A stretch of DNA of 64,000 bases from the NCBI GenBank assembly GCA_024672315.1, contig GCA_024672315.1_4714.1; one strand, given 5' to 3'. The notes under the pieces were generated by a model. The model saw only the letters and a program-made list of their open reading frames with translations. It did not search any database and was not told the DNA's origin. The position numbers and the translations under genes are program-made. Positions within the stretch are counted from its first letter, which is position 1, and every line of letters begins with the position of its first letter. This stretch comes from a phage. Below, piece by piece: positions 14,175 to 51,830 of this stretch.

Positions 14175-14924
14175 TTAGGGATGGCGCAACATAGTCACAT
14201 CCCAGCATACCAGCTTGCTTTTCTCAAGCATCTTCTGCGCGATATCAACGCTAACTCTAGGATGCATGACAGGTAGCCAACGTTCGTTAAGTACCTTCGC
14301 TTCCAGGCGTTGTTTGCGGGGATTGTAGCGCGCTTCGCTAACCCATGTGTAACCGAAAGGATGGATAACCCGTGGGTAGTAACGTTTAAGCATCACCAGT
14401 CTTTGCTGATAAAGCTTATCGGAACCCTCGCCAACGAATAAGGCAACCCGTTCCAACCGCTTGGTGTAATACGTTCCGGTGGTATGATTGATCCAACCAG
14501 GAAGCGTTCGTACGTCATTTTCAAGTGTTCCTGATACGTTGTGCACTTCACCGCTATACACCGTCCCAACAACCTGATTCGCTGCGTCCACCATCGACCG
14601 TGGCAAAGCATCGGCGGTAGGATACAACCATGCGTCCCCAAGCTGCTCTCCCGACGCAAGTACTCGTAGTCCGCTTGCGCTCATCCGTTGCGGATGCTGA
14701 CTCTTATGCGCACGCAACTGCACCACAGATAAGTCCGCTGGATAGGCGACACAACAACCCCGCTGACGGAACCGTCCAACCTCACCATCCATCCCTTCGA
14801 TCATGCTTCCTTCCGAACCGTTCCACCAACGTTTAACCTTCACGCATTCTGCTTGCACCGCTTCAGGCAACGTTAGATAATCGTGCTCGATAAACACCAC
14901 ATCAAAAATTAATTCATTGTTCAT
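14175..14924 (-). CDS. hypothetical protein
   Basis: 249 aa, AGAGGA RBS; first gene downstream of the promoter-motif pair at 15006-15072. Confidence 0.55.
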   Translation of the reverse strand: MNNELIFDVVFIEHDYLTLPEAVQAECVKVKRWWNGSEGSMIEGMDGEVGRFRQRGCCVAYPADLSVVQLRAHKSQHPQRMSASGLRVLASGEQLGDAWLYPTADALPRSMVDAANQVVGTVYSGEVHNVSGTLENDVRTLPGWINHTTGTYYTKRLERVALFVGEGSDKLYQQRLVMLKRYYPRVIHPFGYTWVSEARYNPRKQRLEAKVLNERWLPVMHPRVSVDIAQKMLEKSKLVCWDVTMLRHP

Positions 14925-15806: not shown

Positions 15807-16700
15807 TTAATCAGCGACGTTATAACCGAATACGACTTTACCGTAGGTGTGAGTACCGTCAGCTAATGACAGCACCAGCACGTGGTTGTACGTAGCGTTA
15901 ACGCCCTTGTCGGTAGACTGGGCGGTAGCACCGTTATAGACAAAGGTAGCCGTTTGCAGATTGGTTTTCAGCTCATTGATGATATCATCACTTACACCGG
16001 TCTGCTCTTTGATCAGCGTAGTCAGGTTACCTGCTAAGCCTGCATCGATATTTACTTCGTTGCCGGTAATAGCTTGTAAACCTGCGGTGTAAGTACTGAA
16101 GTCTAACGGATAGGTTAACAGACGTGCTGAGGTCTTGGTACCATCGCCTTCATCAACGTAGGTTAAGTTACCTAGATTGGTAACCTTGATGATGTTAGCC
16201 AGATCCAGCGTGGTGTTATAAACTTTAACTTGAACAGAGCCGTACCACGCCAACGAATCTTCTTTGGCTTCCAGGGTGATCGTCTGGATACCATGCTGGT
16301 CGAAGGTAACCGGCGTAGCTAACGTTTCGGCTTTGATGTCTTTCGTTTTATCCAGGAACTTGTCACCGGAAGGCGTGATCATACCGTAGCGTTGAGCTAC
16401 GAGGTCGACCACATCACCGATGGTGGTGTTAGCAGTAACGTTAACACGTACGGCGATCTTCTGGAACCACTTAGCCAGATCCAGACGATGGTAGGTAACA
16501 TCGCGGTCATTGAAGTAAGGGGTACCATCACCAGGGCTAAGCGTTAAAGTTGCTTCTGGAGCAGAATCACTTTTGGATTTAAGAACGTATTTAAGATCAG
16601 AGTATTGGAATTCGGCACCAGTGTCGGCGTTGAGTTTGTTAATCTCATCAACGATAAGTTGCCAAGGTGTTTTTAAAGTAAGCGAAACTTGAGTTGCCAT
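15807..16700 (-). CDS. abundant virion-type protein, member of ~300-aa paralog family
   Basis: 297 aa; strongly biased enterobacterial codon usage; shares YxR[IL], R[YF]G[ILM] and LAW[YT]GSV blocks with 16842, 27766, 29588 and 30450; hairpin H3 follows 16 nt after stop. Confidence 0.65.
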   Translation of the reverse strand: MATQVSLTLKTPWQLIVDEINKLNADTGAEFQYSDLKYVLKSKSDSAPEATLTLSPGDGTPYFNDRDVTYHRLDLAKWFQKIAVRVNVTANTTIGDVVDLVAQRYGMITPSGDKFLDKTKDIKAETLATPVTFDQHGIQTITLEAKEDSLAWYGSVQVKVYNTTLDLANIIKVTNLGNLTYVDEGDGTKTSARLLTYPLDFSTYTAGLQAITGNEVNIDAGLAGNLTTLIKEQTGVSDDIINELKTNLQTATFVYNGATAQSTDKGVNATYNHVLVLSLADGTHTYGKVVFGYNVAD

Positions 16701-16841
16701 TTTCTACCTCTATGGTTGTTACATCACTCTCAAAAGATGTAAGTGTTTACAGAAATTAATATATTTTATATTAGTGTGAATAATATGGAGAACGACTCCG
16801 AATCTCCTTTTCGACCATCAAAAATCAGAGGACACATTATC

Positions 16842-17384
16842 ATGGCCTTAGACTTTAACAAAGCAGCGAAATCCCTTCTGCTTGATCTTATCAACACCAA
16901 AGCGACCCGCACGCTGACCGAAGAAGAACTGCAGTTCGGTACTCCGCAGGCATCTTCCGAACATCCTAAGAACACCGTTATTCAGCTGGACGCTGCGCCT
17001 GAAGCAGCTAACCTGCAGGGTAGTAAGCAGTTCTACTACGATCGTCTGGCTCTGTCCGACGTTTTCGCTGATGTAACTAGCGATGTTACTTTCGAACTGC
17101 CGCACGGTACCGACAGCATCCAGGCTTCTGAACTGGTAAGCAAGCTGGTCACCAAATTCGGCCTGGCTTCCCTGACCGGTGAAATCAAAGAAGAAACCTT
17201 CCAGCTGTCTGCAGGTACTGTTGCTCAGGTAACTCTGAACGCGATCGAGAATGGCATGGTATATACCGGCACCCTGCAGGTTGCACTGACCTACGCAGCT
17301 GCACCGAAAGATGACCTGGCAACCGTTCTGGCGAATAACGTAGCTGAAGGCTTCGAGAAACCGACCGTTAGCGTTGTTGGCTAA
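16842..17384 (+). CDS. short member of ~300-aa paralog family
   Basis: Start moved to ATG 16842 (AGAGGA RBS, onset of strong codon bias); motifs FYYDRLALSDVF, KFGLASLTGEI, MVYTGTLQV. Confidence 0.6.
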   Translation: MALDFNKAAKSLLLDLINTKATRTLTEEELQFGTPQASSEHPKNTVIQLDAAPEAANLQGSKQFYYDRLALSDVFADVTSDVTFELPHGTDSIQASELVSKLVTKFGLASLTGEIKEETFQLSAGTVAQVTLNAIENGMVYTGTLQVALTYAAAPKDDLATVLANNVAEGFEKPTVSVVG

Positions 17385-17678: not shown

Positions 17679-18314
17679 TTATTCAACACTGAAACCGTTC
17701 AAACGAATAGCTTCATAACGCTTACGTTCACGACGTTTACGTGCCTGCCAGCCGTAAATGAACTTCTCGTCTTTCTCACGACGTTCAGCTAATTCGATGT
17801 AGTAGGTGCTCTGCATATCCAACATCGCGTCGATGAGATAATCTTTACCGGTTTCTCCGCGTTTAGCGATGTAAGCGTCGAGTACGCCTAACGTCGCAGG
17901 TCCCATCAAACCGTCGGCGTTGATATCTTTCCAGTAAGTTTGACGATTGTTCATGACGTTAAGGTAACGCTGGAGGTTCTTAACCGCAACCGTTTTACCT
18001 GCATTGATACCCAGGTCAAAGAGACGGTCAGCTAAGAACACAGAACGTTTCATGACTTCGTCAAGCTTCATCTTATCCCAGAAATGAGTCTTGTAGATAA
18101 AGAACGCCATTTCCGTGGTAAGGTTACGCATGTTACCGTTCCAGCCGAATTTCGTTTTCAGCGTGGTTTTGTATTGTTCCGCCAAAGCTTGCGTCACGCC
18201 GTGGTTTGTGATTCCGCCCGAATCATCGGGATCGTCGACGTAACCTGCTTCGATGCTTGTTTTGTCACGAATGATGAATTCGCAGGTAAAATCTTTTTCT
18301 GTAATCTTAGCCAT
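17679..18314 (-). CDS. endolysin, GH108-type lysozyme with peptidoglycan-binding domain
   Basis: N-terminal EAGYVDDPDDSGGITNHGVTQ matches GH108 catalytic signature; AGGAG RBS. Confidence 0.75.
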   Translation of the reverse strand: MAKITEKDFTCEFIIRDKTSIEAGYVDDPDDSGGITNHGVTQALAEQYKTTLKTKFGWNGNMRNLTTEMAFFIYKTHFWDKMKLDEVMKRSVFLADRLFDLGINAGKTVAVKNLQRYLNVMNNRQTYWKDINADGLMGPATLGVLDAYIAKRGETGKDYLIDAMLDMQSTYYIELAERREKDEKFIYGWQARKRRERKRYEAIRLNGFSVE

Positions 18315-18440: not shown

Positions 18441-20489
18441 TTAAATACCCTTGGTTCCTTTCACGTGATGTGCAATTTCTTCAACCATTGCACGCAGAGC
18501 ACGAAGCTGTTGGTCATGTTCGTACCAACCGCCTAACAGAACCCCGCTATACACCATGGTGTCAAGACTTAACAGCCCTTTATCTGATACGTTGATCATT
18601 TCAGGGAACTGTTCTTGAACACGCTGTGCGATAACACCGATCTTCTCGACATCAGGATCGTAGTTGTGACGGAAACGGGCAAGCCCACTGCGTGCCATTT
18701 CACGTAAACGTTCACTAAGAGATTCTGGATGGTCTTTCAGATAACGGATGTCGTGTTTACTGCGCTCATCTGAACGGATGTAAGCGTTAGGAACATCGAT
18801 GTTGCTGTTGAAGTACAGCGCACTACCACCACCTGCAGAGTTCCCCCAATAGAAGCGCGTGATCTCACCGCCACCATTTTCCGTGATGATAACATGTTTA
18901 CCTAAACGTGTACCACCATTACCATCAACGAAGACCAGTTTGTTTCCGCTGTAAGAACCCCAGAACAAGCGTGTATCGATGATGTGCGTTGCGGCGAGAC
19001 GGGCGTTACGCGGTGTAGAATACACGGTGTTAACATCTTGCTGCGCATGCGCATCGGAAGCGATACCGTAGTTCTGAACGTTCCCCAACCCTACCTGCGC
19101 TTTCGTAACAGCGTGAGGGTTGTCTCGACGGTTAGCGTGAGCGTTAACCAGATCACCCGCTAATTTCTGAATTGCCCAGTTAGTAGACTGTGGTGTCATG
19201 TAACGGTTAGTCGAGGAACCACCTTGCGCTTCAGCTTGGTTAGCGGTTGGGTAGTTCTCAACACTTCCTAACCCTACTTGTGCTTTAGACACTTGGTGTG
19301 GGTTATTCTTGTCAGCGATGTGTGCATTAAGCGGAACTAACGCAAAGGTCTCAATGGACGCTTTGGTTGTGTTCGGTGCCATTAATCGGTTAGCTGCAAC
19401 ACCGGCGCGCGCTTCTTCTTCAGAAGCCATCGGATAGTTTTGCACATTACCTAATCCCACCTGGGCTTTAGTTACCTTGTGTGGGTTGTTGTAATCGGTT
19501 TTGTGTGCATTAAGCGGAATCAGTGCGAACTGTTCAATCGCTGCAACAGTGCGTAGCGGCGTCATGAAACGGTTGTTCGCTGTTCCGGCTTTCGCCTCAC
19601 CATCCGAAGCGGTCGGGAAGTTATCAACGTTCCCAAGGTTAACCTGTGCTTTGGTGACGCTATGCGGGTTATCCCGACGGTTAGCGTGTGCGTCGACGAG
19701 ATCGCCCGCCAGTTTAGCAATTGCCCATCCAACCGTTTGTGCGGTCATGTATCGGTCAGGTGCAGTACCGGCTTCTGCCTCCGCCTTGTTTGCGGTAGGA
19801 TAGTTCTGTACGTTACCGAGTCCGACTTGGGCTTTTGTTACTTCGTGCGGGTTATCGGTACGGTTAGCATGCGCGTAATGCAGATCGGTTAGATCTTTAT
19901 CCGCTGCTTGCATGTCTTTGCGTAGCTGATCGATTGCCGCCCAGAGACGGTTATCGGATGCAGCATCACCGATAAGTATTGCGGCTTTCAGTGAATAGAT
20001 CGCTAAGCAAAGATGTTCGGTACCGTAAATAGCACTAACGTGGTGGATGTGTGGTTCAGGCGGATAAAGTTCCGGTTTGTTCTTGATGTCGTCCCAGTTG
20101 ATCGGACGATCGTCAAGTTTGAGTTCTTCGATAGCCTGATATAACGCGTCAATAAGACTTACGTAAACACCACCGATGATACGATAGTCGTTAACTAACG
20201 TCCCCTCGATATCATCGTTGATGATGGCGATCGCCGCACAGATTTCTTTACCTGCGTAAAGCGTTGCGTCCTGATACAAGAAGATGGGTTTATAATCCAC
20301 GCCTCGCACCAGTGTCTTACCGGTAAGCTTTTCAGTGATGACCAGACTTTCGGTGAAGAACGGTCCGCCATCAAGGGCGTAACATTTATTCTCGGTTCGT
20401 GGAACGGTATGCTCTTCACCAACGATGTGGTTGCTGGCGAGTGTACCGGTCCAGTCCTCGGGGTACTTCAGGGTAATTGGTGTCGACAT
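18441..20489 (-). CDS. tail fibre with NPH repeats and C-terminal S74 intramolecular chaperone domain
   Basis: Five ~55-aa repeats (NPHxVTKAQVGLGNVxNY...YMTP); C-terminal RSDERSK Ser/Lys motif and GWYEHDQQLRAL typical of self-cleaving chaperone domains. Confidence 0.75.
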   Translation of the reverse strand: MSTPITLKYPEDWTGTLASNHIVGEEHTVPRTENKCYALDGGPFFTESLVITEKLTGKTLVRGVDYKPIFLYQDATLYAGKEICAAIAIINDDIEGTLVNDYRIIGGVYVSLIDALYQAIEELKLDDRPINWDDIKNKPELYPPEPHIHHVSAIYGTEHLCLAIYSLKAAILIGDAASDNRLWAAIDQLRKDMQAADKDLTDLHYAHANRTDNPHEVTKAQVGLGNVQNYPTANKAEAEAGTAPDRYMTAQTVGWAIAKLAGDLVDAHANRRDNPHSVTKAQVNLGNVDNFPTASDGEAKAGTANNRFMTPLRTVAAIEQFALIPLNAHKTDYNNPHKVTKAQVGLGNVQNYPMASEEEARAGVAANRLMAPNTTKASIETFALVPLNAHIADKNNPHQVSKAQVGLGSVENYPTANQAEAQGGSSTNRYMTPQSTNWAIQKLAGDLVNAHANRRDNPHAVTKAQVGLGNVQNYGIASDAHAQQDVNTVYSTPRNARLAATHIIDTRLFWGSYSGNKLVFVDGNGGTRLGKHVIITENGGGEITRFYWGNSAGGGSALYFNSNIDVPNAYIRSDERSKHDIRYLKDHPESLSERLREMARSGLARFRHNYDPDVEKIGVIAQRVQEQFPEMINVSDKGLLSLDTMVYSGVLLGGWYEHDQQLRALRAMVEEIAHHVKGTKGI
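19020..19920 (-). repeat. tandem coding repeats (five NPH units) in tail fibre gene
   Basis: Repeated DNA cores encoding NPHxVTKAQVGLGNV. Confidence 0.7.
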
Positions 20490-20502
20490 AACCTGGAGGT
20501 CC

Positions 20503-23106
20503 TTATAACGTGACTGTACCTAATTTGGTTGTCTTATTGAGATTAATGACAGAGATCTGGGTATCGCTGGTCGTAATCGTTCCGATATTAACGCGCTGTC
20601 CTTTATCATCTTCTTGCTTGTAGATGGTTAACTCCAGTTCTAACTGGTCGCCATTAGGAACAACGGAAACGTACCATGTTTTATTACCCGGTGAGCTATT
20701 ATAGTCTTTTAGGTTATAATGGCCTTTAGGTAAGGTCATGACCTTACCGGCAAACAAGCAAGTGATGTCTTCGTTGATGTAGATATCGTAACCGGAAGCA
20801 GCAACGACCGTAGAAACCATGTAACGGTTTTTAACAGCGAGAGCTTTATATTCCGCAACGGAATTACCGACAGCGCTAAAGACTTGACCGCCATTACCCA
20901 TCACCGTAGAGACTGCGGTATCAACATAACCGATTCCCCACACCGGATGCACGTTCCAGCGCCAGCCGCTTGTCTGTAGGTAAGCATACATACCTTCAAA
21001 TGCGATGGTTGTCCAGTTCCCATCGTTTTGTCGTCCAGCTCGGAACTGATAGGTGTTCTGGTTCCCTGCAGACTGACGGGAGTACGGAACATGTCCCGCA
21101 ACAAGCCATCCATCACTCGCCTTCTTGTAAGCTAATACACCCCAGGCAGCATCCTGACTACCGATATTTGTTGAATCGGGTTCTTCGACATAACCCAGCA
21201 ATTTGGTTACGCCCGTCACCGTAATAGCGCCTTTACGCGCGGATACGGTAACCTCTGCAGCGATTCGTCCATGTACGCGTGTGCTGGTATTACAGCCAGC
21301 AACAAACAGGATACAGGGTGCGTTTGTACCATCTGGAGGCACTGCTAACGCATGTCGCCACTGACTTACCCCTGATAACTTAGATCCTGTATATGCGTTC
21401 CACACAAGCTGACCGCCTGCCTGCAGATTCGCTGCGGTTATGCTGATGGCTTCACCGGATGGTGCAAGTTTGGTTGCATCGTAACCGATTTTGCTTGTTA
21501 GGACCGCATCGGTTAAATAAGACCCGCTAACCACCGTATTATCGTCGCTTAAATGCACGGTTAGGAAAGGTAGTGACATTTGACCCGTTCTAACCACCAC
21601 GTTGTTGGAAGGCGGAAAACCGTAAACATTAATACCCTCGCCCTGATAATGGTAATTGAGGTTCCAGTCATAGGTCACTAGACGAGCCTCAAAATTACCC
21701 TGTCCGCCAGCCGTACGCGAGTTAACAAAAACCTTGTTCTTAGAAAAGAAACCCAGGTAACCATGGGACGCGAGTGCACCAACGACGCGATCCCCGACGC
21801 TTTTCCAGTTTGAATCGTACTGTCTTCCACCGGTCGGGCCGAGTTTGGCGAGTTCGTCGAACACGTTTCCAGAGAAACCATTGATGGTGTACGATCTCGC
21901 TTGGGGGGCGGATAAGTTGTCGTTTTGGATAAGGGCTACCTGACCACGTTCGTTGATTTCGATATTCCCGGTACCGTTACCCGAACCCCATTGCCAGAAA
22001 CCATCGTTATATGCACTTGTCCCCTCCGTTGTGTTGGAAGGTCCTATCCAGTCAATACCGCTGCTGGTTGACGTGTAAGTCGATTGTCCAGCGCCTGGGT
22101 TCATGCTGTAACTGTTGTTGGCGGTTTCAAAATCCAGATAAAACTGATGCAGCCCGTTTTTAGATCGGTTGTTACGGTTGTTCGTCCACCACGCCGAAGC
22201 AATCAGAATGCGTGCTTTAGTGCCTTTGGTTGCTGCAAGCAGACGAATCTGGGCACGCCAGACGATTTGACCGATCCCGTCAGAAGGGAAATCGTTCGCA
22301 GTTATGCGGTTGCAGACAATCATCTCGGCGCTGTTGCTTATTGCCATCCCTTCTATCGTTCTACCGCTAATATTCGTAAGCTGTGTAGCCGCTACGCTGC
22401 CACCGCTGGGACCGATGGAAGATTTAGTTACGGTATAAACATTTAAGTAGAGTTTATAACTGTTAGTGCCAGCAATAGCGATGTAGATTTTACCGTTAAT
22501 TTCCCAACAGCAGACATTCGGTGACGTATCAACAAAGTTGGCAAGACTACCATCGAGATACATGGCGACGTGTTTGGATGCATCAAACGTTCCGTCTGTC
22601 AATGCGATAAACATTTTAGGGCTGCTACCGTCTTCAAAAGCAGCTTGACCTAACATGATACCGTTCTGGTGACAGTATATCGCCGTAGGAATACGGTCGA
22701 GCGTCGCGGGTTCATAACGACGACTGGTTGGGATAACTTCGGTGATTTGCCCGTTTTGATCTGTTTTACAGATAACGTAGTAAACCCCTTTCTTTACGCT
22801 GTTCGTTGCTGAACGCAATAACACGATAGTACCGTCGGATTCACGACATACGCCGTAACGACGGTATCTGTCGTTTAGGGAGATAGCACCATCAGCGGAG
22901 CCTTCAATTGCCAGAGGAAAATAACTTTGGTCCCCAACCTGTTCGATATCGGTTACGCCAATATCGATGTATTTTTCCATCTCAGTGTCGAACTCAGCGG
23001 TACTGTAGGCACCGAGATCGCTCGCCTTTAGTCCCGTTGGGTTGTCACGACTGGCGATACGCGTAGTAACGCTACTCACCAGTTCGCTGAACTTTTTCAT
23101 TGCCAT
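20503..23106 (-). CDS. tail fibre / receptor-binding protein
   Basis: 867 aa; N-terminus FSELVSSVTTRIASRDNP shares module with neighbouring fibre genes; Gly/Ser/Thr/Asn-rich body; GAGGTG RBS. Confidence 0.6.
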   Translation of the reverse strand: MAMKKFSELVSSVTTRIASRDNPTGLKASDLGAYSTAEFDTEMEKYIDIGVTDIEQVGDQSYFPLAIEGSADGAISLNDRYRRYGVCRESDGTIVLLRSATNSVKKGVYYVICKTDQNGQITEVIPTSRRYEPATLDRIPTAIYCHQNGIMLGQAAFEDGSSPKMFIALTDGTFDASKHVAMYLDGSLANFVDTSPNVCCWEINGKIYIAIAGTNSYKLYLNVYTVTKSSIGPSGGSVAATQLTNISGRTIEGMAISNSAEMIVCNRITANDFPSDGIGQIVWRAQIRLLAATKGTKARILIASAWWTNNRNNRSKNGLHQFYLDFETANNSYSMNPGAGQSTYTSTSSGIDWIGPSNTTEGTSAYNDGFWQWGSGNGTGNIEINERGQVALIQNDNLSAPQARSYTINGFSGNVFDELAKLGPTGGRQYDSNWKSVGDRVVGALASHGYLGFFSKNKVFVNSRTAGGQGNFEARLVTYDWNLNYHYQGEGINVYGFPPSNNVVVRTGQMSLPFLTVHLSDDNTVVSGSYLTDAVLTSKIGYDATKLAPSGEAISITAANLQAGGQLVWNAYTGSKLSGVSQWRHALAVPPDGTNAPCILFVAGCNTSTRVHGRIAAEVTVSARKGAITVTGVTKLLGYVEEPDSTNIGSQDAAWGVLAYKKASDGWLVAGHVPYSRQSAGNQNTYQFRAGRQNDGNWTTIAFEGMYAYLQTSGWRWNVHPVWGIGYVDTAVSTVMGNGGQVFSAVGNSVAEYKALAVKNRYMVSTVVAASGYDIYINEDITCLFAGKVMTLPKGHYNLKDYNSSPGNKTWYVSVVPNGDQLELELTIYKQEDDKGQRVNIGTITTSDTQISVINLNKTTKLGTVTL

Positions 23107-23118
23107 TATTCACCTCGA

Positions 23119-23604
23119 TTAAATAGGCGAGTCGGGTAGCTGACCATCATCGATCTCGATGGTGGCCACCTTACGTGTTGCAGCAAGATGTGATGTACCC
23201 TGGATTTTGTTCCAGGTGCCGATACGCATGGCGTTTTTGTAGCTGCTATCGCTATCGTTCAGTGTGTAAACAAAACCGCTATCGGTTACGGCAAGATAGA
23301 TCCAGCCTACAGACTCACTGATACCTGACACGTCCAAAGTTGCTGCTGGCACCGTCCCTACCACCGTGTTGTATTCCGCTGTACCTTGACCAATGCTGAT
23401 CCGTCCGTTGCTGTAACTGGCTGCCGGAAGCGTTTTATTTCGACTGAAGAAAAGAAACGGAAGGTAACGCTGGGTAACAAGCGGTGCAAGTTTAGAAGCC
23501 ACTTCGGTCTTAACGTAGACATCTGTTTGTGTTGGCGTTACCTCGTGAGGGTTCTTTTGGGTAAGATACGTCCCCCATTCAGAAAGCAGTGTTGATAGCT
23601 TCAT
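23119..23604 (-). CDS. small tail-fibre-family protein
   Basis: 161 aa; N-terminus LSEWGTYLTQKNPHEVTPTQ shares fibre module. Confidence 0.5.
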   Translation of the reverse strand: MKLSTLLSEWGTYLTQKNPHEVTPTQTDVYVKTEVASKLAPLVTQRYLPFLFFSRNKTLPAASYSNGRISIGQGTAEYNTVVGTVPAATLDVSGISESVGWIYLAVTDSGFVYTLNDSDSSYKNAMRIGTWNKIQGTSHLAATRKVATIEIDDGQLPDSPI

Positions 23605-23608
23605 GCGG

Positions 23609-24118
23609 TTACCCCATGTAACGTTTTTGGCCGAGGATGAAGACTTTGTTAAAGACCACCGAAGTGATTCCTGTTGCGTTACAGCTCACCTGCCCGACGC
23701 GAATTGCTGTTGACGTATCGACCCCAGCACTACTCTGCCAGATCCAATCGATCGATCCGTCTTTCTGACGAATGAAAAGATAACCGGTTTTGTTCGCCCA
23801 GTCGGAAGTAAGTTTTTTGATGTCTAGCGTTCCCTTCGCCAGAATATAGTCGGTACCGGCGATCATGACGGGTATTTCAGGATACGAGATTACCGTACCG
23901 CTGGCGGTAACGTTGCTGATGCGATCACTACGAATATCAGTACAATCACCGAAATACGCTACGGGGAGTATCCCCTTAGGGAGCTTTTTGCCGATTCTCG
24001 TATCGATCGTGTTTTTATCGGGTGCACCGATTTGTGCTGCAGTGACTTGGTTAGGGTTATCCTTCCTTGCGTACCATGTCGTCATGCGAGCACCCAATTC
24101 ACTCATTTTTGTGCCCAT
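23609..24118 (-). CDS. small tail-fibre-family protein
   Basis: Track start 24124 is GTG; ATG at 24118; N-terminus MSELGARMTTWYARKDNPNQVTAAQIG shares fibre module. Confidence 0.5.
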   Translation of the reverse strand: MGTKMSELGARMTTWYARKDNPNQVTAAQIGAPDKNTIDTRIGKKLPKGILPVAYFGDCTDIRSDRISNVTASGTVISYPEIPVMIAGTDYILAKGTLDIKKLTSDWANKTGYLFIRQKDGSIDWIWQSSAGVDTSTAIRVGQVSCNATGITSVVFNKVFILGQKRYMG

Positions 24119-24152
24119 TTTCACATCCTATCGAAAAATAAAAAGAAGGAAA

Positions 24153-24169
24153 GGTGGGTAGAACCCACC
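24153..24169 (-). terminator. intrinsic terminator after tail fibre gene 24176-26329
   Basis: GGTGGGT / ACCCACC stem; plus-strand A-rich run 24128-24150 gives U-run on minus transcript. Confidence 0.65.
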
Positions 24170-24175
24170 CATCCG

Positions 24176-26329
24176 TTATAACGTTTCGAAGTCGGTTGCT
24201 TTGATAACCGCGTTGAAGTTAGCAAGGAATTCCTTAAGCAGTGCTTGGAAGACATCACGAAACGCTGTGTTCGTCTGCAAGCTGGTTAAATAATCGTTCT
24301 TAAGGTAATCGCTCAGCTTACCGATCTTCTGCATCTTCTCGCCGTCTTGGTTCTCTCCAGGTTCTTGGCTGTTGATGTTAACCCATTTGATCCCTTCGAG
24401 ATCGCCATCGGCAAGGAAGTTGGCGGGTGTCTCATCGTCGTTCAGGATTTTAATCGTATCACTGGATTCAATACCACCGTAAGCTTCCAGAAGCTGGTTG
24501 ACTGTTAGCTTATTGGTGTTGATTGAACCATTGACACCATCGATACCGATGCCTGCACCTGTGATGGATGTCGCCGAAAGATCGATCGGTCCGGTTAACT
24601 TACCACCGTTGATCGGTAACGCACCAACTTGCTCAGCGGTGTGTGTATGGTCAGCTAACGCCGCAAACGCCACGATAGACTTATATGTCGAATACGGCGT
24701 CATATACGCTGATTGGTTGGTGTTGTCAGCCGCTTCAGTATCGGTAGCAACATTAAAGTTCTGCACGTTGCTGAGACCGACCTGTGCCTTCGTTACTTCG
24801 TGCGGGTTGTTCTTATTGACAACGTGTGCGGCAAAACCGTCACCAGCTAAAGCAGTGATTGCAGCTTTTGTCGCAGCCGGTGTCATATAGCGGTTGGTTG
24901 CTTCACCCGTTTGCGCCTCTTCGTCGGAAGCAACAGGATAGTTCTCAACGCTCCCCAAACCGACCTGAGATTTTGTTACTTGGTGTGGGTTTTCGGTATT
25001 CGCGATGTGACTACTGAACCCTTGACCAGCCAGCTGCTCGATTGCGTAACGAACAAGTATTGGTGTCATGTACTTGTTGTTAACTTGACCATCGATCGCT
25101 TCTTGGGTGGTGGCAACCCCGAAGTTTTGCACGCTCCCCAACCCAACTTGCGCTTTCGTAACAGCGTGAGGGTTATTGGTGTTACCGATGTGATCGGTAA
25201 CCGTTGGGGTGATTAATGCTGCGATAGCGGCTGCCGTGGTCGCAGGGGTCATGTATTTATCGTTAGCAACACCTGCACCAGCTTCTACGTTAGATGCTAC
25301 ACCGTAGTTCAATACATTCCCTAACCCAACTTGAGCTTTGGTTACCCCATGGGGGTTGGTCTTGTCTCCGGTATGGGTTGTCAACGTAGCGTTGACATGA
25401 TCGATACGCGTGCTTAAGCCGTCGGTGATTGCTTTGATTGCGGCTCGTACACCCGCTGGTGTTGTGTACAGATTTGTGGCCGTACCGGTAATAGTTGTAT
25501 TACTATCGGCTGTACCGTAGTTCTCAACGTTTCCGAGCCCCACCTGGGCTTTCGTTACCTTGTGTGGGTTGTTGTAGTTGCTGATGTGTGCAGCAGCACT
25601 ATCACCACTCAGGTTAGCGATCATCTTACGCGTCATCGCCAACGTCATGTACAGATTTTCACCGATGGTTTCCAGATCGCTCTCGGTCGCCGTTGTGAAG
25701 TTCTGAACATTCCCCAAACCAACTTGTGCCTTGGTTACACCATGGGGGTTATCGCGACGATTCTCGTGCTGTAGCAATGCGGTCATTGCTTTATTGAACC
25801 CTTCTTCAAGCGGTTCTTTCAATGATTCGATTGCAGCCACCACATCGTCCCACGTCATTGTGTCGGTTTCGACATTATGCTGATGGTTGATTGGCGGGAA
25901 TACGGAAGGAACGTCGGCAACCTTTTCCCAGAACGTAACGCGGGGGTCGTAGAGGTTGTTGGCTAAAACGTTAAGAATTTGTTGTTGATCAAGTGTAAAC
26001 TCACCCCCCAGTGAATAGTAGTTCAGTTGCAACTGTCCACTGAATGCGGTGTCCAACAGCATGATGGAACCGTATAATTCCAGGCCGGTCAGCGCAGCCA
26101 TGGCACGGAAGGGGTGAGTGCATAAAAAGTCAACGCCTTCTTCCAGATACGCGTTTGTTTCAGGGTTGTAGATCTTTAACCCATTACGAAAATAGGGTGC
26201 GTATTTAGGAACGAGAAAGTTAAATCCGGTCCCCGTGGAAGGACGGACAGTGACGAGTTCTTCTGGAACCCATGCGCCATCCAAATTCCCCTGCGGGTTA
26301 TACGGAAGGCGTTTAATTTCATCTGTCAT
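24176..26329 (-). CDS. tail fibre with six NPH repeats
   Basis: 717 aa; six repeats of NPHxVTKAQVGLGNVxNx...YMTP; followed by terminator 24153-24169. Confidence 0.75.
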   Translation of the reverse strand: MTDEIKRLPYNPQGNLDGAWVPEELVTVRPSTGTGFNFLVPKYAPYFRNGLKIYNPETNAYLEEGVDFLCTHPFRAMAALTGLELYGSIMLLDTAFSGQLQLNYYSLGGEFTLDQQQILNVLANNLYDPRVTFWEKVADVPSVFPPINHQHNVETDTMTWDDVVAAIESLKEPLEEGFNKAMTALLQHENRRDNPHGVTKAQVGLGNVQNFTTATESDLETIGENLYMTLAMTRKMIANLSGDSAAAHISNYNNPHKVTKAQVGLGNVENYGTADSNTTITGTATNLYTTPAGVRAAIKAITDGLSTRIDHVNATLTTHTGDKTNPHGVTKAQVGLGNVLNYGVASNVEAGAGVANDKYMTPATTAAAIAALITPTVTDHIGNTNNPHAVTKAQVGLGSVQNFGVATTQEAIDGQVNNKYMTPILVRYAIEQLAGQGFSSHIANTENPHQVTKSQVGLGSVENYPVASDEEAQTGEATNRYMTPAATKAAITALAGDGFAAHVVNKNNPHEVTKAQVGLSNVQNFNVATDTEAADNTNQSAYMTPYSTYKSIVAFAALADHTHTAEQVGALPINGGKLTGPIDLSATSITGAGIGIDGVNGSINTNKLTVNQLLEAYGGIESSDTIKILNDDETPANFLADGDLEGIKWVNINSQEPGENQDGEKMQKIGKLSDYLKNDYLTSLQTNTAFRDVFQALLKEFLANFNAVIKATDFETL
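24700..25770 (-). repeat. tandem coding repeats (six NPH units) in tail fibre gene
   Basis: Same unit as 19020-19920; segments 25121-25171 and 25531-25580 nearly identical to 19071-19121 and 19451-19500. Confidence 0.7.
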
Positions 26330-27765: not shown

Positions 27766-28671
27766 TTATGCCACGTATAGCGTTAGATAACCATCGATGA
27801 GCGTATTCATCACACTGAGTTGAAGTACGACAGCTTTACTAACATCCGTACGTACACCGAACGGTAGTGTTTTGAATTGCTCTGGATCGGCTATTACTTG
27901 CGCATTCTGCAAGTTGAGCGGCCCAGGCATTGCTGACAATACCCAGCGATCGTTGACCATAAGGCCGTCGATCTCTTCAGAGAGACCCAATTGCAGCATG
28001 TTCATTTCTGCGATTAGTGCCTCCGATTGCGTATCACCTGAGGTTAACGTATAACCATCGGTAAGTGACGCCAGAACACCAGCAGATACGAACCAGTTGT
28101 ACGAAACAATAGCGCCTGGGAGTTTACTGCTATCTCGATCGATGATATAATTCAACCCAGCCAACATATTGTTGCGAACGAGGTTGTTGAGGTCATTATG
28201 TCCTGAAGTTAACTCGACAAGTAACTGACCAACCCATACTTGGTTACCGGGTTTAGGTGTTATCACAACCTGTATCGGTGACTTGGACTTATCCAGATCC
28301 GTGTCGACAATCTCGGTTTTGTTGAGAAGGATACCGTACGTCGATGCTAAGACAGGTAGGATCTCAGAGACCTTGGTTAGCGCATCTAAGGTTTCGATCT
28401 CGACGGGCCAGTGGTGCTGTCCGCCAGGCCAAGTACCCAGTTTACCAAGATCGATGCGGTTATAATAGATGTCGACAGAGTTCACCAGCCCTGAACCCGG
28501 CTGGGGATGCACGGTTAACTTGCTGTTACGCTTGTACCCTGTGCTTTCAGAAGCCTCACCGATAACCAGTTTATCCAGCGTTACGCCTCGAGCATCGAAA
28601 TCGCTATGCTTTCGAATCAGCCGAAAGAGGATTTCTTTCGATTCTAACCCCAGGATTTCACTGTACTCCAT
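27766..28671 (-). CDS. member of ~300-aa paralog family
   Basis: 301 aa; YYNRIDLGKL, STYGILLN, VWVGQLLV blocks; AAGGGG RBS. Confidence 0.6.
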   Translation of the reverse strand: MEYSEILGLESKEILFRLIRKHSDFDARGVTLDKLVIGEASESTGYKRNSKLTVHPQPGSGLVNSVDIYYNRIDLGKLGTWPGGQHHWPVEIETLDALTKVSEILPVLASTYGILLNKTEIVDTDLDKSKSPIQVVITPKPGNQVWVGQLLVELTSGHNDLNNLVRNNMLAGLNYIIDRDSSKLPGAIVSYNWFVSAGVLASLTDGYTLTSGDTQSEALIAEMNMLQLGLSEEIDGLMVNDRWVLSAMPGPLNLQNAQVIADPEQFKTLPFGVRTDVSKAVVLQLSVMNTLIDGYLTLYVA

Positions 28672-28686
28672 TTAACACCCCTTAGG

Positions 28687-29571
28687 TTACGGTAGGATTT
28701 CTGCGCCCGTCGGGCCTGCCTTACGAGCTTCCAACGCACCAAGGTCGTATTTCAGTGTCAGCGTATCGTTGGTGGTAAATAGGTTGTGGTAAGTCGAAAT
28801 CAGATCGGTAACCTGCGCACCAACGATTTCGTTCATGTCGAAGGCCGAACCTTGACCATCATCAGCACGAACGATTTTATCGCCAGCAGAGACCATCCCA
28901 ATTTCAGAAATAACCGCGTACTCTTCACCACCTTCGGTGAGTTTAGCCACATTGAGATATTCGTTAATATCCCATGGCGTCCAAACCAAAGAGACTTTAC
29001 AGCTATAATCGTAGTACTCCCCGGTCGCTACCAGAATTCCGGTTGTTGGAATATCCGGTCGGGTGGGGTTGAGGTTCGCGTCGGTTGGATGCCATTCGAT
29101 GGTCTGAGCGACGCCGTCGACGTATTTGGTATAACGCATGGAGCGGACAACGTTATCGAAATCGATGCGACGACCGTAATAACAGATATACTTTTTACCG
29201 CTTTCCAGTGTCTCAATACGACGTAACCCAAATTTAGCGCGTTCGTCCGTGGTCAAGTCGTTACCAACCTCACGCATCACGAAAGGCTTGATTTTCCACG
29301 GTGAAAGATCGCTTGCTTCGTGAGCGATCGGCATCGAGGAAGGGATACCGTTAGCGTTGCGGATGAATTCATGACCCTGGTTGCCGATACAGAAGTAACG
29401 TACAGCAGGATTACCCTCGGGGTAAACCTTTGATTGAATCTGAAGCTTTTCATTCAAGGTGCTGTGTTCTTCCCATGCATGAGGAAGACCGAGCGTAAGG
29501 TTAGTTTGTACTTGACCGCCGATAATCGTACGGACGATACGATCGGTAGCACGGATTTGTGTAGAAGCCAT
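28687..29571 (-). CDS. hypothetical virion-type protein
   Basis: 294 aa, AGGAAA RBS; embedded in paralog cluster but lacks family motifs. Confidence 0.55.
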   Translation of the reverse strand: MASTQIRATDRIVRTIIGGQVQTNLTLGLPHAWEEHSTLNEKLQIQSKVYPEGNPAVRYFCIGNQGHEFIRNANGIPSSMPIAHEASDLSPWKIKPFVMREVGNDLTTDERAKFGLRRIETLESGKKYICYYGRRIDFDNVVRSMRYTKYVDGVAQTIEWHPTDANLNPTRPDIPTTGILVATGEYYDYSCKVSLVWTPWDINEYLNVAKLTEGGEEYAVISEIGMVSAGDKIVRADDGQGSAFDMNEIVGAQVTDLISTYHNLFTTNDTLTLKYDLGALEARKAGPTGAEILP

Positions 29572-29587: not shown

Positions 29588-30439
29588 TCAGTTATATTGC
29601 ATCAACAGGATACCGCCGTAGTTCGTGCAGTAATCTTGGCTAAGCGTAACGATAACAGCGTTAGCGAACGCAGGGTTAACCGGATAACCCTGTGCGATAA
29701 GTTCTGTTGTTTTACCGGTTGCAAGCACAGTGGCTCCGTAAAGGTTGTTTTCGTCTTCACGGCCGTTATAAACCCACGGGATTGGCGCAACGTTGTTGAA
29801 TAAGCTAACCAGTGCGCTTAAGTTACCGCCAACTTTTAACCCAGCAAGATCGGAACGGATAGCCGTACAGTCTATAGCGTAACTGTAGACCAATGCCTGG
29901 ATACGATTTGCGGTGTAGTACGGGAAATTGAGACCGGTCATCACCGAAGTCTTCATCATCCCCGCAATATCGTGGGCACTATCGAGGAGATAGAACGTAA
30001 CACTTCCCGTCCAAGCCAATCCGGTTGTTTTCAATTCTACGGTGTGAGGGAACGGATATTCATCCCCTCGTACAATCGGAGAATCGACGCAGCTATCCTG
30101 ATCGATAACGATTCCGTACGTTGATTGAATCAGAGGGATAAGATCGTGCGTCGTTTTAACCCCAGCATCGATAGCAAGCTTCGGTTCCATTCCCAAGAAG
30201 AAGTCTTGGATAGGGATACGATCGTACCACACGTAGCTGCTTTCACGGTATTGTGCTGGCGTTACTGTTGCCGAAGGCGATACCTTAGCGCGTGTGTTCC
30301 GTTTATACGCATGGTTTCCGTTTTCAGCAGCATCCGTGATATCAATTGCATCGAAGTTAAAGTCGAAGTCAGGATTGGCCGCCTGAATAAGTTCAGCGAC
30401 CAGTACTTTAGGACTTTTGTTTAACAATTTCTGACTCAT
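29588..30439 (-). CDS. member of ~300-aa paralog family
   Basis: 283 aa; VWYDRIPIQDFF, STYGIVID, LAWTGSV blocks; AAGGAA RBS. Confidence 0.6.
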   Translation of the reverse strand: MSQKLLNKSPKVLVAELIQAANPDFDFNFDAIDITDAAENGNHAYKRNTRAKVSPSATVTPAQYRESSYVWYDRIPIQDFFLGMEPKLAIDAGVKTTHDLIPLIQSTYGIVIDQDSCVDSPIVRGDEYPFPHTVELKTTGLAWTGSVTFYLLDSAHDIAGMMKTSVMTGLNFPYYTANRIQALVYSYAIDCTAIRSDLAGLKVGGNLSALVSLFNNVAPIPWVYNGREDENNLYGATVLATGKTTELIAQGYPVNPAFANAVIVTLSQDYCTNYGGILLMQYN

Positions 30440-49808: not shown

Positions 49809-49813
49809 ATATA

Positions 49814-50446
49814 TCACCAATGATCGAAGGAACCGGGAGCGTTACGAACGATCTCAACTTGGAAGGTTATTGGTACTGATGGCAATGAAACATATTCGCG
49901 TTGCGATAGCAGGACGTTGTCTTCTCGCTCATCGATGCGAGCAGAACCCGTCAGAAATTGGAACATAGCGACTTGAAGCTCATCGGTGAAACGGAGGTAC
50001 TCACCGATGTGTGGTGTTGCATCATATCGAATAAGTACGTTACCAAACCGTCGTGCGATATTTGGAGTATCTGTGAACGAAACAGGGAAATCCAAAGTCA
50101 TTCCCATCGTTTCACCTGGCTTCATTTTCCGAATCGACGCAATTGGCACGTCGAAGATATTCCATTCTTCTTTCATCGTGTCTGGAAACACACCGCGATA
50201 CAAGATGGTTTTTTGATGACGATGAACGGGTTGTAAACGGTCAACCAATATTTTCAAAGGTTTAAGTTCTTCAGCCAATTCATAATCTGCTTGGATGTTC
50301 CACTTTGCCGCAAGTTCCATTAGGTTGGGATACGCGCTATATTTATTGACGATAGCCCAGTTAACATTACGCAAATCGATAGGAAGGAATTTGATAATTT
50401 CCTTGTTGAATATCCATTGGTTTAATTTCTTAATCTCCGAAAGCAT
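49814..50446 (-). CDS. hypothetical protein, weak ADP-ribosyltransferase-like motif arrangement
   Basis: Start moved to ATG 50446 to remove 113-nt overlap; LYRG, VSFTDT and DEREDN spaced roughly like R-S-E ART motifs (speculative). Confidence 0.4.
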   Translation of the reverse strand: MLSEIKKLNQWIFNKEIIKFLPIDLRNVNWAIVNKYSAYPNLMELAAKWNIQADYELAEELKPLKILVDRLQPVHRHQKTILYRGVFPDTMKEEWNIFDVPIASIRKMKPGETMGMTLDFPVSFTDTPNIARRFGNVLIRYDATPHIGEYLRFTDELQVAMFQFLTGSARIDEREDNVLLSQREYVSLPSVPITFQVEIVRNAPGSFDHW

Positions 50447-50462
50447 GATGTACTCACTACAG

Positions 50463-51830
50463 CTAAACGGTTGGGCGAATGGTGTTGTCTTTTTCTGGTG
50501 CAAGCCATAACGTGACCGTACCATGGCATGTCCACTGTGGTTCACGTACAGAAGAACCTGCCATCGTAACAGCACAATCGGTACGCATGATAACCCCGTA
50601 TGCTTCGCAGAGATTGTTATCCTGCATCCACACGACTTTAGCAGGCATGCCGGGATACAACAAATCCATGTTTGCGTATTCCCACACCAACTGCATTGTT
50701 CTACCGCGTAATCCAGCAGTATTACTTAATTCACGCCATCGGTTATCGGTTACGCGTCCCATCCCTTTCGCCACCTTCACGTTATCGCTACGTTCTTCAG
50801 TTACGTACTCGCTAACGTTTACAGTACGGCTGATTATCGTATCGCCCCCTTTTGATAATGTCATTCCCTGACTCATCTGACTTGCCGAAACAAAACGCCC
50901 ACCCGCATTACCTAACAACGAAGCCGCGTTATTGATGTCGCTTACCGACGCCCCTCTCGTACATGCAATTTCCACGTATTTGTCACGGTTGATCCAAGTC
51001 TTGTCCATGCCCGGAAACATATCGGCAGGATAGTTGTAAAAGATAGCCGTGCGCCGACCGTCAGAGAAACGGGTTTCGTCGTAGAGAGGATAAATATACA
51101 GATACGGAGATTGATAATAACAACCGACGTCCGCCGAATAAATACCGACCTGGTTCTGGATTTTGTCTACGAGATCCATTGCGTTGGTGCCGTGCGGAAG
51201 AATAAGCAACTTGAACAGGTTGTCGTTATTCGGTGCAACAATGTCTACACCCTGCATTTTGAATCCGGTGTCGGCTTCAACCGCAGAAAGTATCTTGCTG
51301 AATTCGAGTCGTAACACATCCAGCACTTTCGACCCGGTATAGTTTTCACCGGTTTCTGATTGCATGAAGCTTTCAAGAACAGGATCGAACAGTTGAAATT
51401 GAAGATCGACCATTTGTTCGTAGTCTTTCTTCGAAGAATCGGTTGCGGTACGTTCGTCGTTAGCAGACATACGACTGTCCACGGTTGTTAAACAAACCGC
51501 CCGATAGACGTAAGCTTGCGCAGCATCGTCTACGGTTTGGCGTTGTCCGCGCATCAGGCTGTACGCCTGCACGATGATGCGCATTTTAAGTTGTTGTTGG
51601 TACGGTAAGATGTATTTTCCGTAACTGCCTGGCGGGAACTTTACAGAGATATAAAGTTCATCTCCTGCATTACGTTCATAGTCTCGATACGTGTGGACTT
51701 GAGTCACTAAAGGAACAGACACCGTCATTGACGGCGTGATTAATTCCGCGGTGACTTTATACGCAACAGCAACTGCTTCCTGCGCAAATGTACCGATGTA
51801 CCGTCCTAACGGCGTCTGTTTGTAATCCAT
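50463..51830 (-). CDS. hypothetical virion-type protein
   Basis: 455 aa; tightly packed operon. Confidence 0.55.
   Translation of the reverse strand: MDYKQTPLGRYIGTFAQEAVAVAYKVTAELITPSMTVSVPLVTQVHTYRDYERNAGDELYISVKFPPGSYGKYILPYQQQLKMRIIVQAYSLMRGQRQTVDDAAQAYVYRAVCLTTVDSRMSANDERTATDSSKKDYEQMVDLQFQLFDPVLESFMQSETGENYTGSKVLDVLRLEFSKILSAVEADTGFKMQGVDIVAPNNDNLFKLLILPHGTNAMDLVDKIQNQVGIYSADVGCYYQSPYLYIYPLYDETRFSDGRRTAIFYNYPADMFPGMDKTWINRDKYVEIACTRGASVSDINNAASLLGNAGGRFVSASQMSQGMTLSKGGDTIISRTVNVSEYVTEERSDNVKVAKGMGRVTDNRWRELSNTAGLRGRTMQLVWEYANMDLLYPGMPAKVVWMQDNNLCEAYGVIMRTDCAVTMAGSSVREPQWTCHGTVTLWLAPEKDNTIRPTV

Follow-up and report, generated by a model that had tools for sequence, protein, structure and literature searches.

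The five genes considered here lie head to tail on the minus strand of contig GCA_024672315.1_4714.1 (assembly GCA_024672315.1), a stretch of 64,000 nucleotides (nt) that was analysed as a whole and is hereafter called the window, and they very probably constitute the tail-fibre operon of a Goslar-like, nucleus-forming jumbo phage (Chimalliviridae), the counterpart of gp131-gp135 of phiKZ. They are labelled, in order of transcription, E (717 amino acids, aa), D (169 aa), C (161 aa), B (867 aa) and A (682 aa), with intergenic gaps of 4-57 nt. An earlier reading of the sequence, made without database searches (the original prediction), had delimited these tightly packed open reading frames (ORFs) exactly and had taken them for a tail-fibre cluster. 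This is borne out by their orthology to gp025-gp029 of Escherichia phage vB_EcoM_Goslar (NC_048170), a nucleus-forming jumbo phage of E. coli, by their homology and synteny with phiKZ gp131-gp135 and by mass spectrometry (MS) of virions.

The relationship to Goslar is very close. The cluster is 97.4% identical to gp025-gp029 at the nt level without a single indel, and the orthologous genes (95.8-98.5% nt identity individually) have equal lengths, repeat numbers and order; the ATG start of gene D agrees with the Goslar annotation, and its frame is likewise open from a GTG at 24124. The differences come to 2-9 aa changes per protein (A 7, E 9, B 9, C 3 and D 2), those of A and E all falling within the repeat arrays, and the repeat cores carry other synonymous patterns. 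The possibility that the cluster is a hot spot of divergence was rejected, because the whole window is similarly close to Goslar (95.7-96.9% outside the cluster). All five Goslar orthologues, 96-99% identical to the proteins of the window, were found in purified virions by label-free MS, gp025 with 59% coverage (Table S4, bioRxiv 10.64898/2026.04.21.720040). The conditions under which the original prediction was to be given up (no significant match to fibre or S74 families, or absence from virions) thus do not refute it. The cluster is, in this sense, the expected orthologue of a known system, the fibre identity of which was already known for Goslar and phiKZ.

Table. Positions in the window of the fibre genes, their internal features and the divergent neighbouring gene.
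Feature	Position	Strand	Remarks
Gene E, long fibre subunit	24176..26329	(-)	Goslar gp029 orthologue, 98.7% aa; phiKZ gp131 homologue
NPH array of E, 6 units, aa 181-555	24665..25789	(-)	Spacings 60, 71, 61, 61, 61 aa
Core of unit E4	25124..25174	(-)	Partner of A5; noted earlier as 25121-25171, 3 nt off
GC-rich hairpin + T-run, terminator-/attenuator-like	24152..24170	(-)	Between E stop and D start
Gene D, small fibre subunit	23609..24118	(-)	Goslar gp028 orthologue; paralogue of C and of the B C-terminus
Gene C	23119..23604	(-)	Goslar gp027 orthologue; paralogue of D; in virions
Gene B	20503..23106	(-)	Goslar gp026 orthologue; D-like ends flanking a large body, provisionally a beta-propeller
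Variable cassette of B, aa ~85-745	20872..22854	(-)	Replaced in L005; candidate receptor-binding region
Gene A, long fibre subunit	18441..20489	(-)	Goslar gp025 orthologue; phiKZ gp135 homologue
NPH array of A, 5 units, aa 200-504	18978..19892	(-)	Regular 61-aa spacing
Core of unit A5, NPHAVTKAQVGLGNVQN	19071..19121	(-)	Partner of E4 core 25124-25174
S74-type intramolecular chaperone of A, aa 573-682	18444..18773	(-)	PF13884 match
gp130-like gene, 426 aa	26434..27714	(+)	Divergent from cluster; Goslar gp030 orthologue; phrog_3337

The element common to the five genes is a repeat, here called the NPH unit, with a period of 183 nt (61 aa). A repeat finder, a motif scan and a repeat profile gave five tandem copies in A and six in E, as had been counted originally, and the consensus of the unit (A-x6-H-x5-NPHxVTKAQVGLGNVxNY-x2-A-x3-EA-x2-G-x5-YMTP-x5-AI-x2-L) has 12 invariant columns. 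When the profile, built from these 11 units, was scored against the six-frame ORFs of the window, E and A came first (3e-170 and 1e-148, respectively, each unit of E reaching an independent E-value of 1e-27 to 7e-32 in hmmsearch), followed by D (9e-4) and, as the next best ORF, C (0.22). In B, C and D a single degenerate copy is found near residue 20: RDNPTGLKASDLG in B (NPTGLKASD at aa 22), KNPHEVTPTQTD in C (NPHEVTPTQ at aa 18) and KDNPNQVTAAQIG in D (NPNQVTAAQ at aa 21). The proposal that all five genes carry an NPxxVTxAQ module holds literally for A (four matches), E (five) and D (one), but not for B and C (none), whereas a relaxed NPH pattern matches in all five and nowhere else among the 60,348 six-frame residues of the window. 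The modules of B and C are regarded as homologous to the rest because both proteins are paralogous with D and match phiKZ gp131/gp132.

Scans of Pfam and NCBIfam at E<=0.01 found no curated family covering the 61-aa unit, which is represented in uncurated PHROGs only, so that, of the two kinds of family that the original prediction had proposed to search for, the S74 chaperone was matched (see below) but a fibre repeat was not. For B, C and D the same scans gave nothing, apart from a sub-threshold Lyase_8 match in C regarded as noise, and C was without a match among the PHROGs as well. Sequence searches of the PDB with the single proteins and with the repeat profile found no chain matching the unit except for a sub-threshold motif in gp34 of phage T4, the other matches being discarded (ribosomal L18e noise, and a WDDI..KP..FPP..H motif in the "tail collar fibre gp4", 9d93), and a literature search for the motif GLGNV in phages returned only irrelevant papers. 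The distribution of the unit is nonetheless broad: among 1.84 billion representative proteins, 16,909 match the profile at E<=1e-3 and 4,488 at E<=1e-10, some of them with up to 29 matched stretches. Homologues of E number 1,228 at E<=1e-20, and among the best 120 of these 1,228, many are encoded on contigs of 200-315 kb and the C-terminal domains vary.

As to the fold of the unit, an AlphaFold2 (AF2) monomer of E (40-sequence alignment; predicted local distance difference test, pLDDT, 64; predicted TM-score, pTM, 0.27) places in each unit a helix of ~21 residues (P....AI..L......H), an irregular NPH...GLGNV stretch, a short helix (A..EA) and a YMTP element, which suggests that the NPH shaft may be a segmented coiled coil. 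The best Foldseek neighbours of this monomer are phage baseplate fibres (T4 gp12, T4 gp34 and Klebsiella KP1), with TM-scores of at most 0.1, and the comparison therefore shows only that the nearest matches are phage fibres. T4 gp12 and gp34 are, like the proteins discussed here, baseplate-anchored fibres, and the gp34 repeat ATQxExxxGTxxxxxITPKKL is reminiscent of the latter half of the unit (A..EA..G....YMTP); however, the match is not significant (profile versus PDB, E=1.4, unit positions 33-57 only) and the NPH half has no counterpart in it.

The organisation of the cluster is that of phiKZ, the locus of which, gp130(-)|gp131,gp132,gp133,gp134,gp135(+), mirrors gp030(+)|E,D,C,B,A(-) of the window: in both phages five consecutive genes diverge from a gp130 homologue. 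By blastp, E matches gp131 (1.6e-42 over aa 4-334), which is also among the 250 phage records returned by tblastn, A matches gp135 (1.5e-31 over aa 10-283), both match gp133 and gp134 as well, and the gp030 orthologue matches gp130 (6.7e-27). What E and A share with gp131, gp133, gp134 and gp135 (1e-9 to 1e-42) is the N-terminal domain (N-domain), a W..I...P..(F/Y)PP..H motif, the helix and the NPH units. B, C and D match phiKZ proteins only at the junction NPH segment (E 4e-4 to 7e-3), for instance the N-terminus of B with gp132 (4e-4) or C aa 15-42 with gp131 aa 318-345 (46% identity, E=7e-4), and gp132 (110 aa) has a single NPH unit, as do B, C and D at their N-terminal ends. The last unit of the phiKZ proteins is a variant, NPHxVTAxQVxxYTKxxxD, leading into the C-terminal domain, and the same junction form is found at the N-termini of B, C and D. 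The gp131 of Erwinia phage RAY was set aside as an unrelated helicase.

The two systems also differ. PhiKZ has four subunits with the N-domain and 1-3 NPH units each, whereas here there are two, with 5 and 6 units; its distal modules are fused behind the shaft, whereas B, C and D are separate proteins starting at the junction NPH; the C-terminal propeller of gp131 has no detectable sequence homology to B; and there is no S74 domain in gp131-gp135. In the phiKZ cryo-electron microscopy (cryo-EM) structure of 2026 (PMC13250141), 12 fibres are described, each docked beneath gp130, a peripheral-baseplate protein, via six gp131-like N-domains and a six-helix bundle, and the fibre base is proposed to contain three gp131 and one each of gp133, gp134 and gp135, with the gp131 propeller distal. 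The phiKZ proteins are virion components and essential or fitness-conferring: gp131-135 tolerate no transposon insertions according to a transposon-sequencing (TnSeq) study. The cluster was also treated by Sycheva et al. 2012, as cited in PMC13250141.

Could the cluster then encode a static scaffold of the peripheral baseplate, instead of fibres that recognise the host? Such a reading can draw on the facts that the Goslar fibres and outer baseplate have not been assigned to proteins (10.64898/2026.04.21.720040), that the earliest description of phiKZ gp131 made it a peripheral baseplate protein and that the TnSeq paper speaks of gp131-135 as a "paralogous baseplate protein family". We consider it very improbable, given that the phiKZ atlas (PMC13250141) locates gp131-like N-domains at the fibre attachment sites with the propeller of gp131 in a distal position, that long segmented repeats, an S74 chaperone and a swappable propeller cassette are typical of fibres, and that many PHROG matches of the cluster proteins are annotated as tail fibre.

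The two long subunits have related architectures and different ends. E is composed of an N-terminal docking domain, a long helix, six NPH units and a C-terminal region of ~160 aa in which no recognised chaperone domain was found; in the AF2 monomer, the N-terminal beta domain spans aa 16-124 (pLDDT 75-91) and the helix aa 160-190. At its very C-terminus (aa ~666-717, 24176-24330 of the window, minus strand), an SDYLK motif is followed by two predicted helices (aa 672-704), and this region, which has no S74 match, loosely recalls a chaperone or docking element. A is built of an N-terminal docking domain, a helix, five NPH units, a short tip and an S74-type chaperone, the Peptidase_S74 family (PF13884) matching aa 573-631 with 26 bits over a gathering cut-off of 22 (E=1.1e-5). 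As the Pfam scan found no S74 domain in B, C, D or E, the expectation that only the 682-aa fibre would have one proved right. The domain of A begins, at profile position 1, with the motif SDERSK (aa 573-578), which sets Ser573 and Lys578 five residues apart, as are Ser911 and Lys916, the pair required for autocleavage in endosialidase NF. From the sequence, autocleavage of A is predicted, which would release a chaperone of 110 aa and leave residues 1-572 as the mature fibre, and a weak full-length alignment of A to the tip and chaperone of S16 gp37 (PDB 6f45, E=0.013) fits this prediction. A thus joins the fibres and spikes with a C-terminal S74 domain (K1F endosialidase, T5 pb1, S16/T4-like gp37), with which it shares a match above the Pfam threshold and the Ser and Lys at i and i+5 at the start of the domain, although its mature part is an NPH-repeat shaft, and not a triple beta-helix or an endosialidase. 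In the relative L008, by contrast, the equivalent fibre has a separate Phage_tail_APC chaperone gene instead of S74.

The three remaining genes are paralogues. Hhalign aligns D with C over 127 columns (96.6% probability, E=6e-10) and D(62-165) with B(760-865) (95% probability, E=3e-8), and D(4-58) also matches B(5-59). All three follow one plan, in which a helix at the N-terminus precedes a single junction NPH module and a domain of ~100 aa forms the C-terminus, and, because D matches both of its ends, B can be described as a D-like protein with ~660-700 inserted residues. Each opens with a helix of 15 residues whose end lies ~3 residues ahead of NP, so that the start of the protein falls where a repeat boundary would be.

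How these proteins are assembled and attached is less clear. Phage fibres are normally homotrimers, and B, C and D, each with its own start codon within a tight operon, could be three independent homotrimeric short fibres or spikes, with six trimers (18 copies) of each docked separately. In Goslar virions (10.64898/2026.04.21.720040), the label-free copy numbers (low/median/high, accurate to only ~2-9 fold as gauged from those proteins of the same table whose copy number is known) are 58/87/136 for gp025 (A), 50/75/118 for gp029 (E), 8.5/12.8/20 for gp026 (B), 9.2/13.8/21.6 for gp027 (C), 9.5/14.3/22.4 for gp028 (D) and 12/18/28 for gp030. The range of 8.5-22 copies spans the 18 that separate homotrimers would need, but the nearly equal low estimates of B, C and D (8.5, 9.2 and 9.5) and the precedent proposed for phiKZ, with one gp133, one gp134 and one gp135 per fibre, fit a 1:1:1 complex at least as well; moreover, C and D are only ~160 aa long without any domain known for baseplate binding, and the gp131-like N-domain by which the phiKZ proteins dock is missing from all three. 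Independent homotrimers are, on balance, a real possibility, if one to which we would give somewhat less than an even chance. The near-equal abundance and the phiKZ precedent leave room for a B·C·D heterotrimer, that is, a pseudo-threefold tip made of the three paralogues with a single swappable beta-propeller as receptor binder. By mimicking a further repeat of the shaft, its three helix-plus-NPH junctions would attach such a tip to the A/E fibre without a covalent bond. The joint reading that combines this 1:1:1 tip with a ~1:6 stoichiometry set by an attenuator and with the NPH unit as both a new coiled-coil module and a conversion hot spot is, as a whole, unlikely.

The attenuator in question would be the hairpin ahead of D. 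A strong hairpin with a T-run is found just upstream of the D-like gene in Goslar, in the related loci L005, L007, L008 and L009 and in Serratia phage PCH45, with unrelated sequences (L008:6946-7023, L009:6945-7036 and L010:11442-11510 are the positions in relatives). Its location between E and D fits the ~6-fold lower abundance of D, C and B, and it may act as an attenuator that sets the ~6:1 proportion of the long fibres to D/C/B. The hairpin does not account for the level of A, whose gene is downstream of B and whose abundance matches that of E.

B differs from its paralogues in its large central body. In the AF2 model of B (16-sequence alignment, pLDDT 72.8, pTM 0.52), a D-like N-terminus with a helix (aa 4-19) and the degenerate module is followed by a disordered linker (aa 37-81) and an all-beta body, and a D-like domain (aa ~760-865) closes the protein. 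The body is provisionally assigned as a beta-propeller that would resemble sugar-binding lectins and sialidases. Foldseek relates it to a GH43 arabinofuranosidase with a probability of 1.0, at a sequence identity of 5-10% and with moderate model confidence, and this raises the question of whether the propeller degrades a surface polysaccharide (as a sialidase-, GH43- or GH130-like depolymerase) instead of being a passive, lectin-type binder. With matches of such low identity, no hydrolase match in Pfam or NCBIfam and no catalytic residues identified in B, an enzymatic role appears rather unlikely.

Public data contain 28 homologues of B (33-99% identity), all of ~865 aa, and the comparison with one relative is especially informative. 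L005, a 236-kb contig of a Salmonella Enteritidis assembly, has the same gene order as the window and similar proteins (aa identity of 96% for A, 93% for E, 89% for D, 83% for C and 99% for gp030), but its B is only 52% identical. The difference is concentrated in a cassette of 30-57% nt identity between flanks of 77-97%, with breakpoints at ~aa 85 and ~aa 745, so that the replaced block is the inserted propeller body; breakpoints at the NPH motif were rejected, since the motif lies at aa 22-30. Because the propeller cassette is swapped between relatives, B is the most likely candidate for a host-range determinant in the cluster. Window-type B (P0011) has 326 member sequences. Goslar-like phages appear to travel with Salmonella isolates, be it in a carrier state or as contamination. 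As for the receptor of Goslar, the main text of a receptor-prediction preprint lists this phage as a strain only.

The original prediction had also singled out near-identical segments of ~50 nt, shared by the two long fibre genes, as substrates for homologous exchange. With the second partners placed 3 nt off, as they were at first, the two pairs agree at only 10/51 and 15/50 positions. After a shift of +3, the cores of A5 and E4 are identical at 46/51 positions with an exact run of 26 nt, and those of A3 and E2 (19451-19500 versus 25534-25583) at 42/50 with an exact run of 23 nt. The segments are similar (~84-90%) but not near-identical, and the similarity is limited to the ~51-nt cores that encode NPHxVTKAQVGLGNVxN, whole units being only 42-65% identical.

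Does such similarity require DNA exchange, or is it explained by amino-acid conservation and codon bias? In the window, the second explanation goes a long way. Under a null in which the amino acids are kept and the codons are redrawn from the usage of the genes themselves, the best pair is expected to reach 43.0 ± 1.2 of 51 identities and a run of 17 ± 3 nt, so that the best pairs of the window, one with 46/51 identities and a run of 26 nt, the other with 45/51 and a run of 23 nt, stand out only marginally (P=0.017-0.025). The number of pairs with at least 42/51 identities is ordinary (P=0.25), and, at the synonymous codons of whole units, the best pair (16/22 identical) is not significant across 55 pairs. 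In a donor analysis of the differences between the window and Goslar, no repeat accounts for every site at which another has changed, and therefore no specific conversion event is claimed in the window.

It is in the relatives that codon bias falls short, as a comparison of 54-nt cores among the window, Goslar, L005/L006 and L007 shows. Units E1 and E3 of Goslar share an exact run of 44 nt and 49/54 identities with each other, versus 41-48/54 with their orthologues, and units E3 and E6 of L007 share an exact run of 37 nt and 51/54 identities, versus 36-41/54 for the orthologues; runs as long as these did not arise in any of 3000 simulations with resampled codons (null maximum 29-36 nt, P<1/3000). 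Paralogous cores of one genome are in these cases closer than orthologous cores of genomes that are 91-99% identical overall. The synonymous sites of E1 and E3 differ in a concerted manner (CAC/GCG/CAG/GGA in Goslar, CAT/GCx/CAA/GGG in the window), the two units being homogenised over 44 nt in Goslar and not in the window. The cores of E are, in addition, the segment most conserved in the protein and most diverged in the DNA between orthologues: nt identity with the window in the core, the rest of the repeats and the N-terminus is, respectively, 74.7%, 83.9% and 97.4% for L007, 81.8%, 87.3% and 98.0% for L005, and 94.1%, 96.8% and 98.5% for Goslar. At one and the same position, the variable x of NPHxVT also differs between nearly identical phages: at E3, the window and Goslar have G, L005 has A and L007 has E. 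In unit A3, the allele of the window equals E2 at 8/17 differences from Goslar, including the non-synonymous R338K, and the Goslar allele resembles Goslar E1/E3. Exact runs, DNA divergence of the cores and position-wise changes of x together make up a signature of gene conversion; recurrent short-tract conversion within E and between A and E is therefore strongly supported in the relatives and marginal in the window, and we regard the explanation by codon bias without any exchange as quite doubtful.

The exchange that had been foreseen stands, then, as a process, with marginal traces in the window itself (26 nt, P ~0.02). Its supposed consequence, a reshuffling of receptor-binding regions, does not, given that the converted tracts are ~25-45 nt of shaft cores and that the segment actually replaced is the centre of B. 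A crossover between the direct repeats of A and E would delete or duplicate 6 kb with B, C and D, and would not reshuffle tips. Gene A does occupy another position in L008 and L009 (E,A,D,C,B, versus E,D,C,B,A in Goslar), and this order is compatible with a rearrangement between the repeats of A and E, without being a proof of it. Variation in repeat number, which had been suggested as a check among related phages, is not seen among the close relatives (6 units in E and 5 in A) but appears at greater distance (5 and 6 in L008, 6 and 3 in PCH45).

More distant loci complete this picture. The arrangement with a divergent gp130-like gene is also present in L005-L009, and PCH45 has the same layout: its gp130-like gene lies on the other strand, and the genes of its cluster are, in order, E-like (822 aa), D-like (159 aa, 39% identical to D), B-like (887 aa, beginning ...SNPGQVTAAQLGSYSK), one of 353 aa and A-like (576 aa). 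In L008 the order is E (798 aa), A-like (627 aa, no S74), the Phage_tail_APC chaperone gene (E=3e-7), D, C and B, and in L009 it is E, A-like, D, C and B; the A-like fibre without S74 directly follows E, and not B, in both (L008:4459-6949, L009:5014-6948). An Invasin_D3/Big_1 Ig-like domain forms the tip of the E-like fibre in L008. The tips, the chaperone gene and the gene order of L008 and L009 thus show a classical shuffling of modules: tip-plus-chaperone modules have been exchanged in this lineage, and the order of its genes has changed.

Taken together, the account that we favour would run as follows. The N-terminal beta domains of E and A would plug into the peripheral baseplate under the gp130-like protein and be followed by the long helix, six of which form the fibre base in phiKZ. 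From there, a segmented shaft of six (E) or five (A) 61-aa units would extend, each with a ~21-residue helix, an NPH knot and an A..EA..G....YMTP element. The S74 chaperone of A (Ser573/Lys578) would sever itself after folding of the trimer, so that residues 1-572 remain. B, C and D, as paralogues of a ~160-aa subunit (helix, junction NPH knot and a C-terminal domain of ~100 aa, predicted to be beta), would in all likelihood be attached to the fibre by their N-termini of helix plus NPH, phiKZ using the same junction to link shaft and distal domain within one polypeptide. The ~660-aa putative propeller between the ends of B is the cassette that is swapped, with a likely role in host recognition, and the ~51-nt cores exchange short tracts by gene conversion within E and between A and E, scrambling synonymous sites and the variable x while the repeat number is kept.

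Several points have to be set against this account. The marginal excess of the best core pair of the window over its null, the lack of a clean donor tract and the width of the copy-number estimates have been given above. The repeat profile did not detect B among the six-frame ORFs, its module being too degenerate. A gp131-like N-domain was found in none of B, C and D by blastp against the phiKZ proteins, unlike in phiKZ gp133-135, and the phiKZ assembly is therefore not simply transferable; the phiKZ fibre base is itself a backbone fit at ~4.5 Å only (PMC13250141), and the fibres and outer baseplate of Goslar are unresolved in its cryo-EM maps (10.64898/2026.04.21.720040). The AF2 models are low-confidence monomers of almost certainly oligomeric proteins, so that both the helix-plus-knot picture and the propeller assignment are provisional. 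Finally, both variants of B occur in Salmonella Enteritidis assemblies (P0011 with 96% identity and P0022 with 52%), and the variant of B is therefore no simple marker of E. coli versus Salmonella.

The surroundings of the cluster offer further observations. Directly downstream of the fibre genes (17679-18314, minus strand) lies the orthologue of Goslar gp024, an "endolysin" with GH108 and PG_binding_3 domains, which is the most diverged gene of the neighbourhood with respect to Goslar (87.9% nt identity, 15 aa changes). The virion copies of Goslar gp024 (51/76/120) are similar to those of gp025/gp029 (10.64898/2026.04.21.720040), and this abundance suggests a virion-associated lysin rather than, or besides, an endolysin. 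On both sides, the cluster is flanked by DUF7941 paralogues (15807-16700, 27766-28671 and 29588-30439 on the minus strand, and ~16841-17384 on the plus strand), and a DUF7208 gene (the gp032 spoke protein) is located at 28687-29571. DUF7941 proteins have been proposed in the Goslar preprint (10.64898/2026.04.21.720040) to form a long, baseplate-anchored "fibre cloud"; on that view, the whole region of 15.8-31 kb would be a block for host recognition and the baseplate periphery. Two other places differ from Goslar. Between the orthologues of gp047 and gp048, ~650 bp (49813-50463) are absent from Goslar and carry an ORF of ~210-253 aa (49814-50575, minus strand), in which a possible ADP-ribosyltransferase-like motif seen by eye (YRG / S-x-T / Q-x-E) was dismissed for want of Pfam support (best match TusA, E=0.017). 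The segment 14345-15047, in or upstream of the gp021 orthologue (14175-14924, minus strand, no Pfam match), gave no megablast-style blastn alignment to Goslar and would represent a local replacement or a highly diverged segment.

Tail fibres decide which host a phage infects, and in nucleus-forming jumbo phages they are the least resolved part of the virion. The analysis of this cluster does not overturn the current understanding of these structures, but it provides a concrete parts list for the fibre of the Goslar type, and it records the concerted evolution of a fibre repeat which, though very widespread, is still without a curated family or a solved structure. The distinction between constant parts (the N-domains and the B/C/D scaffolds) and a swappable cassette, the putative propeller of B, would be useful for the engineering of host range.

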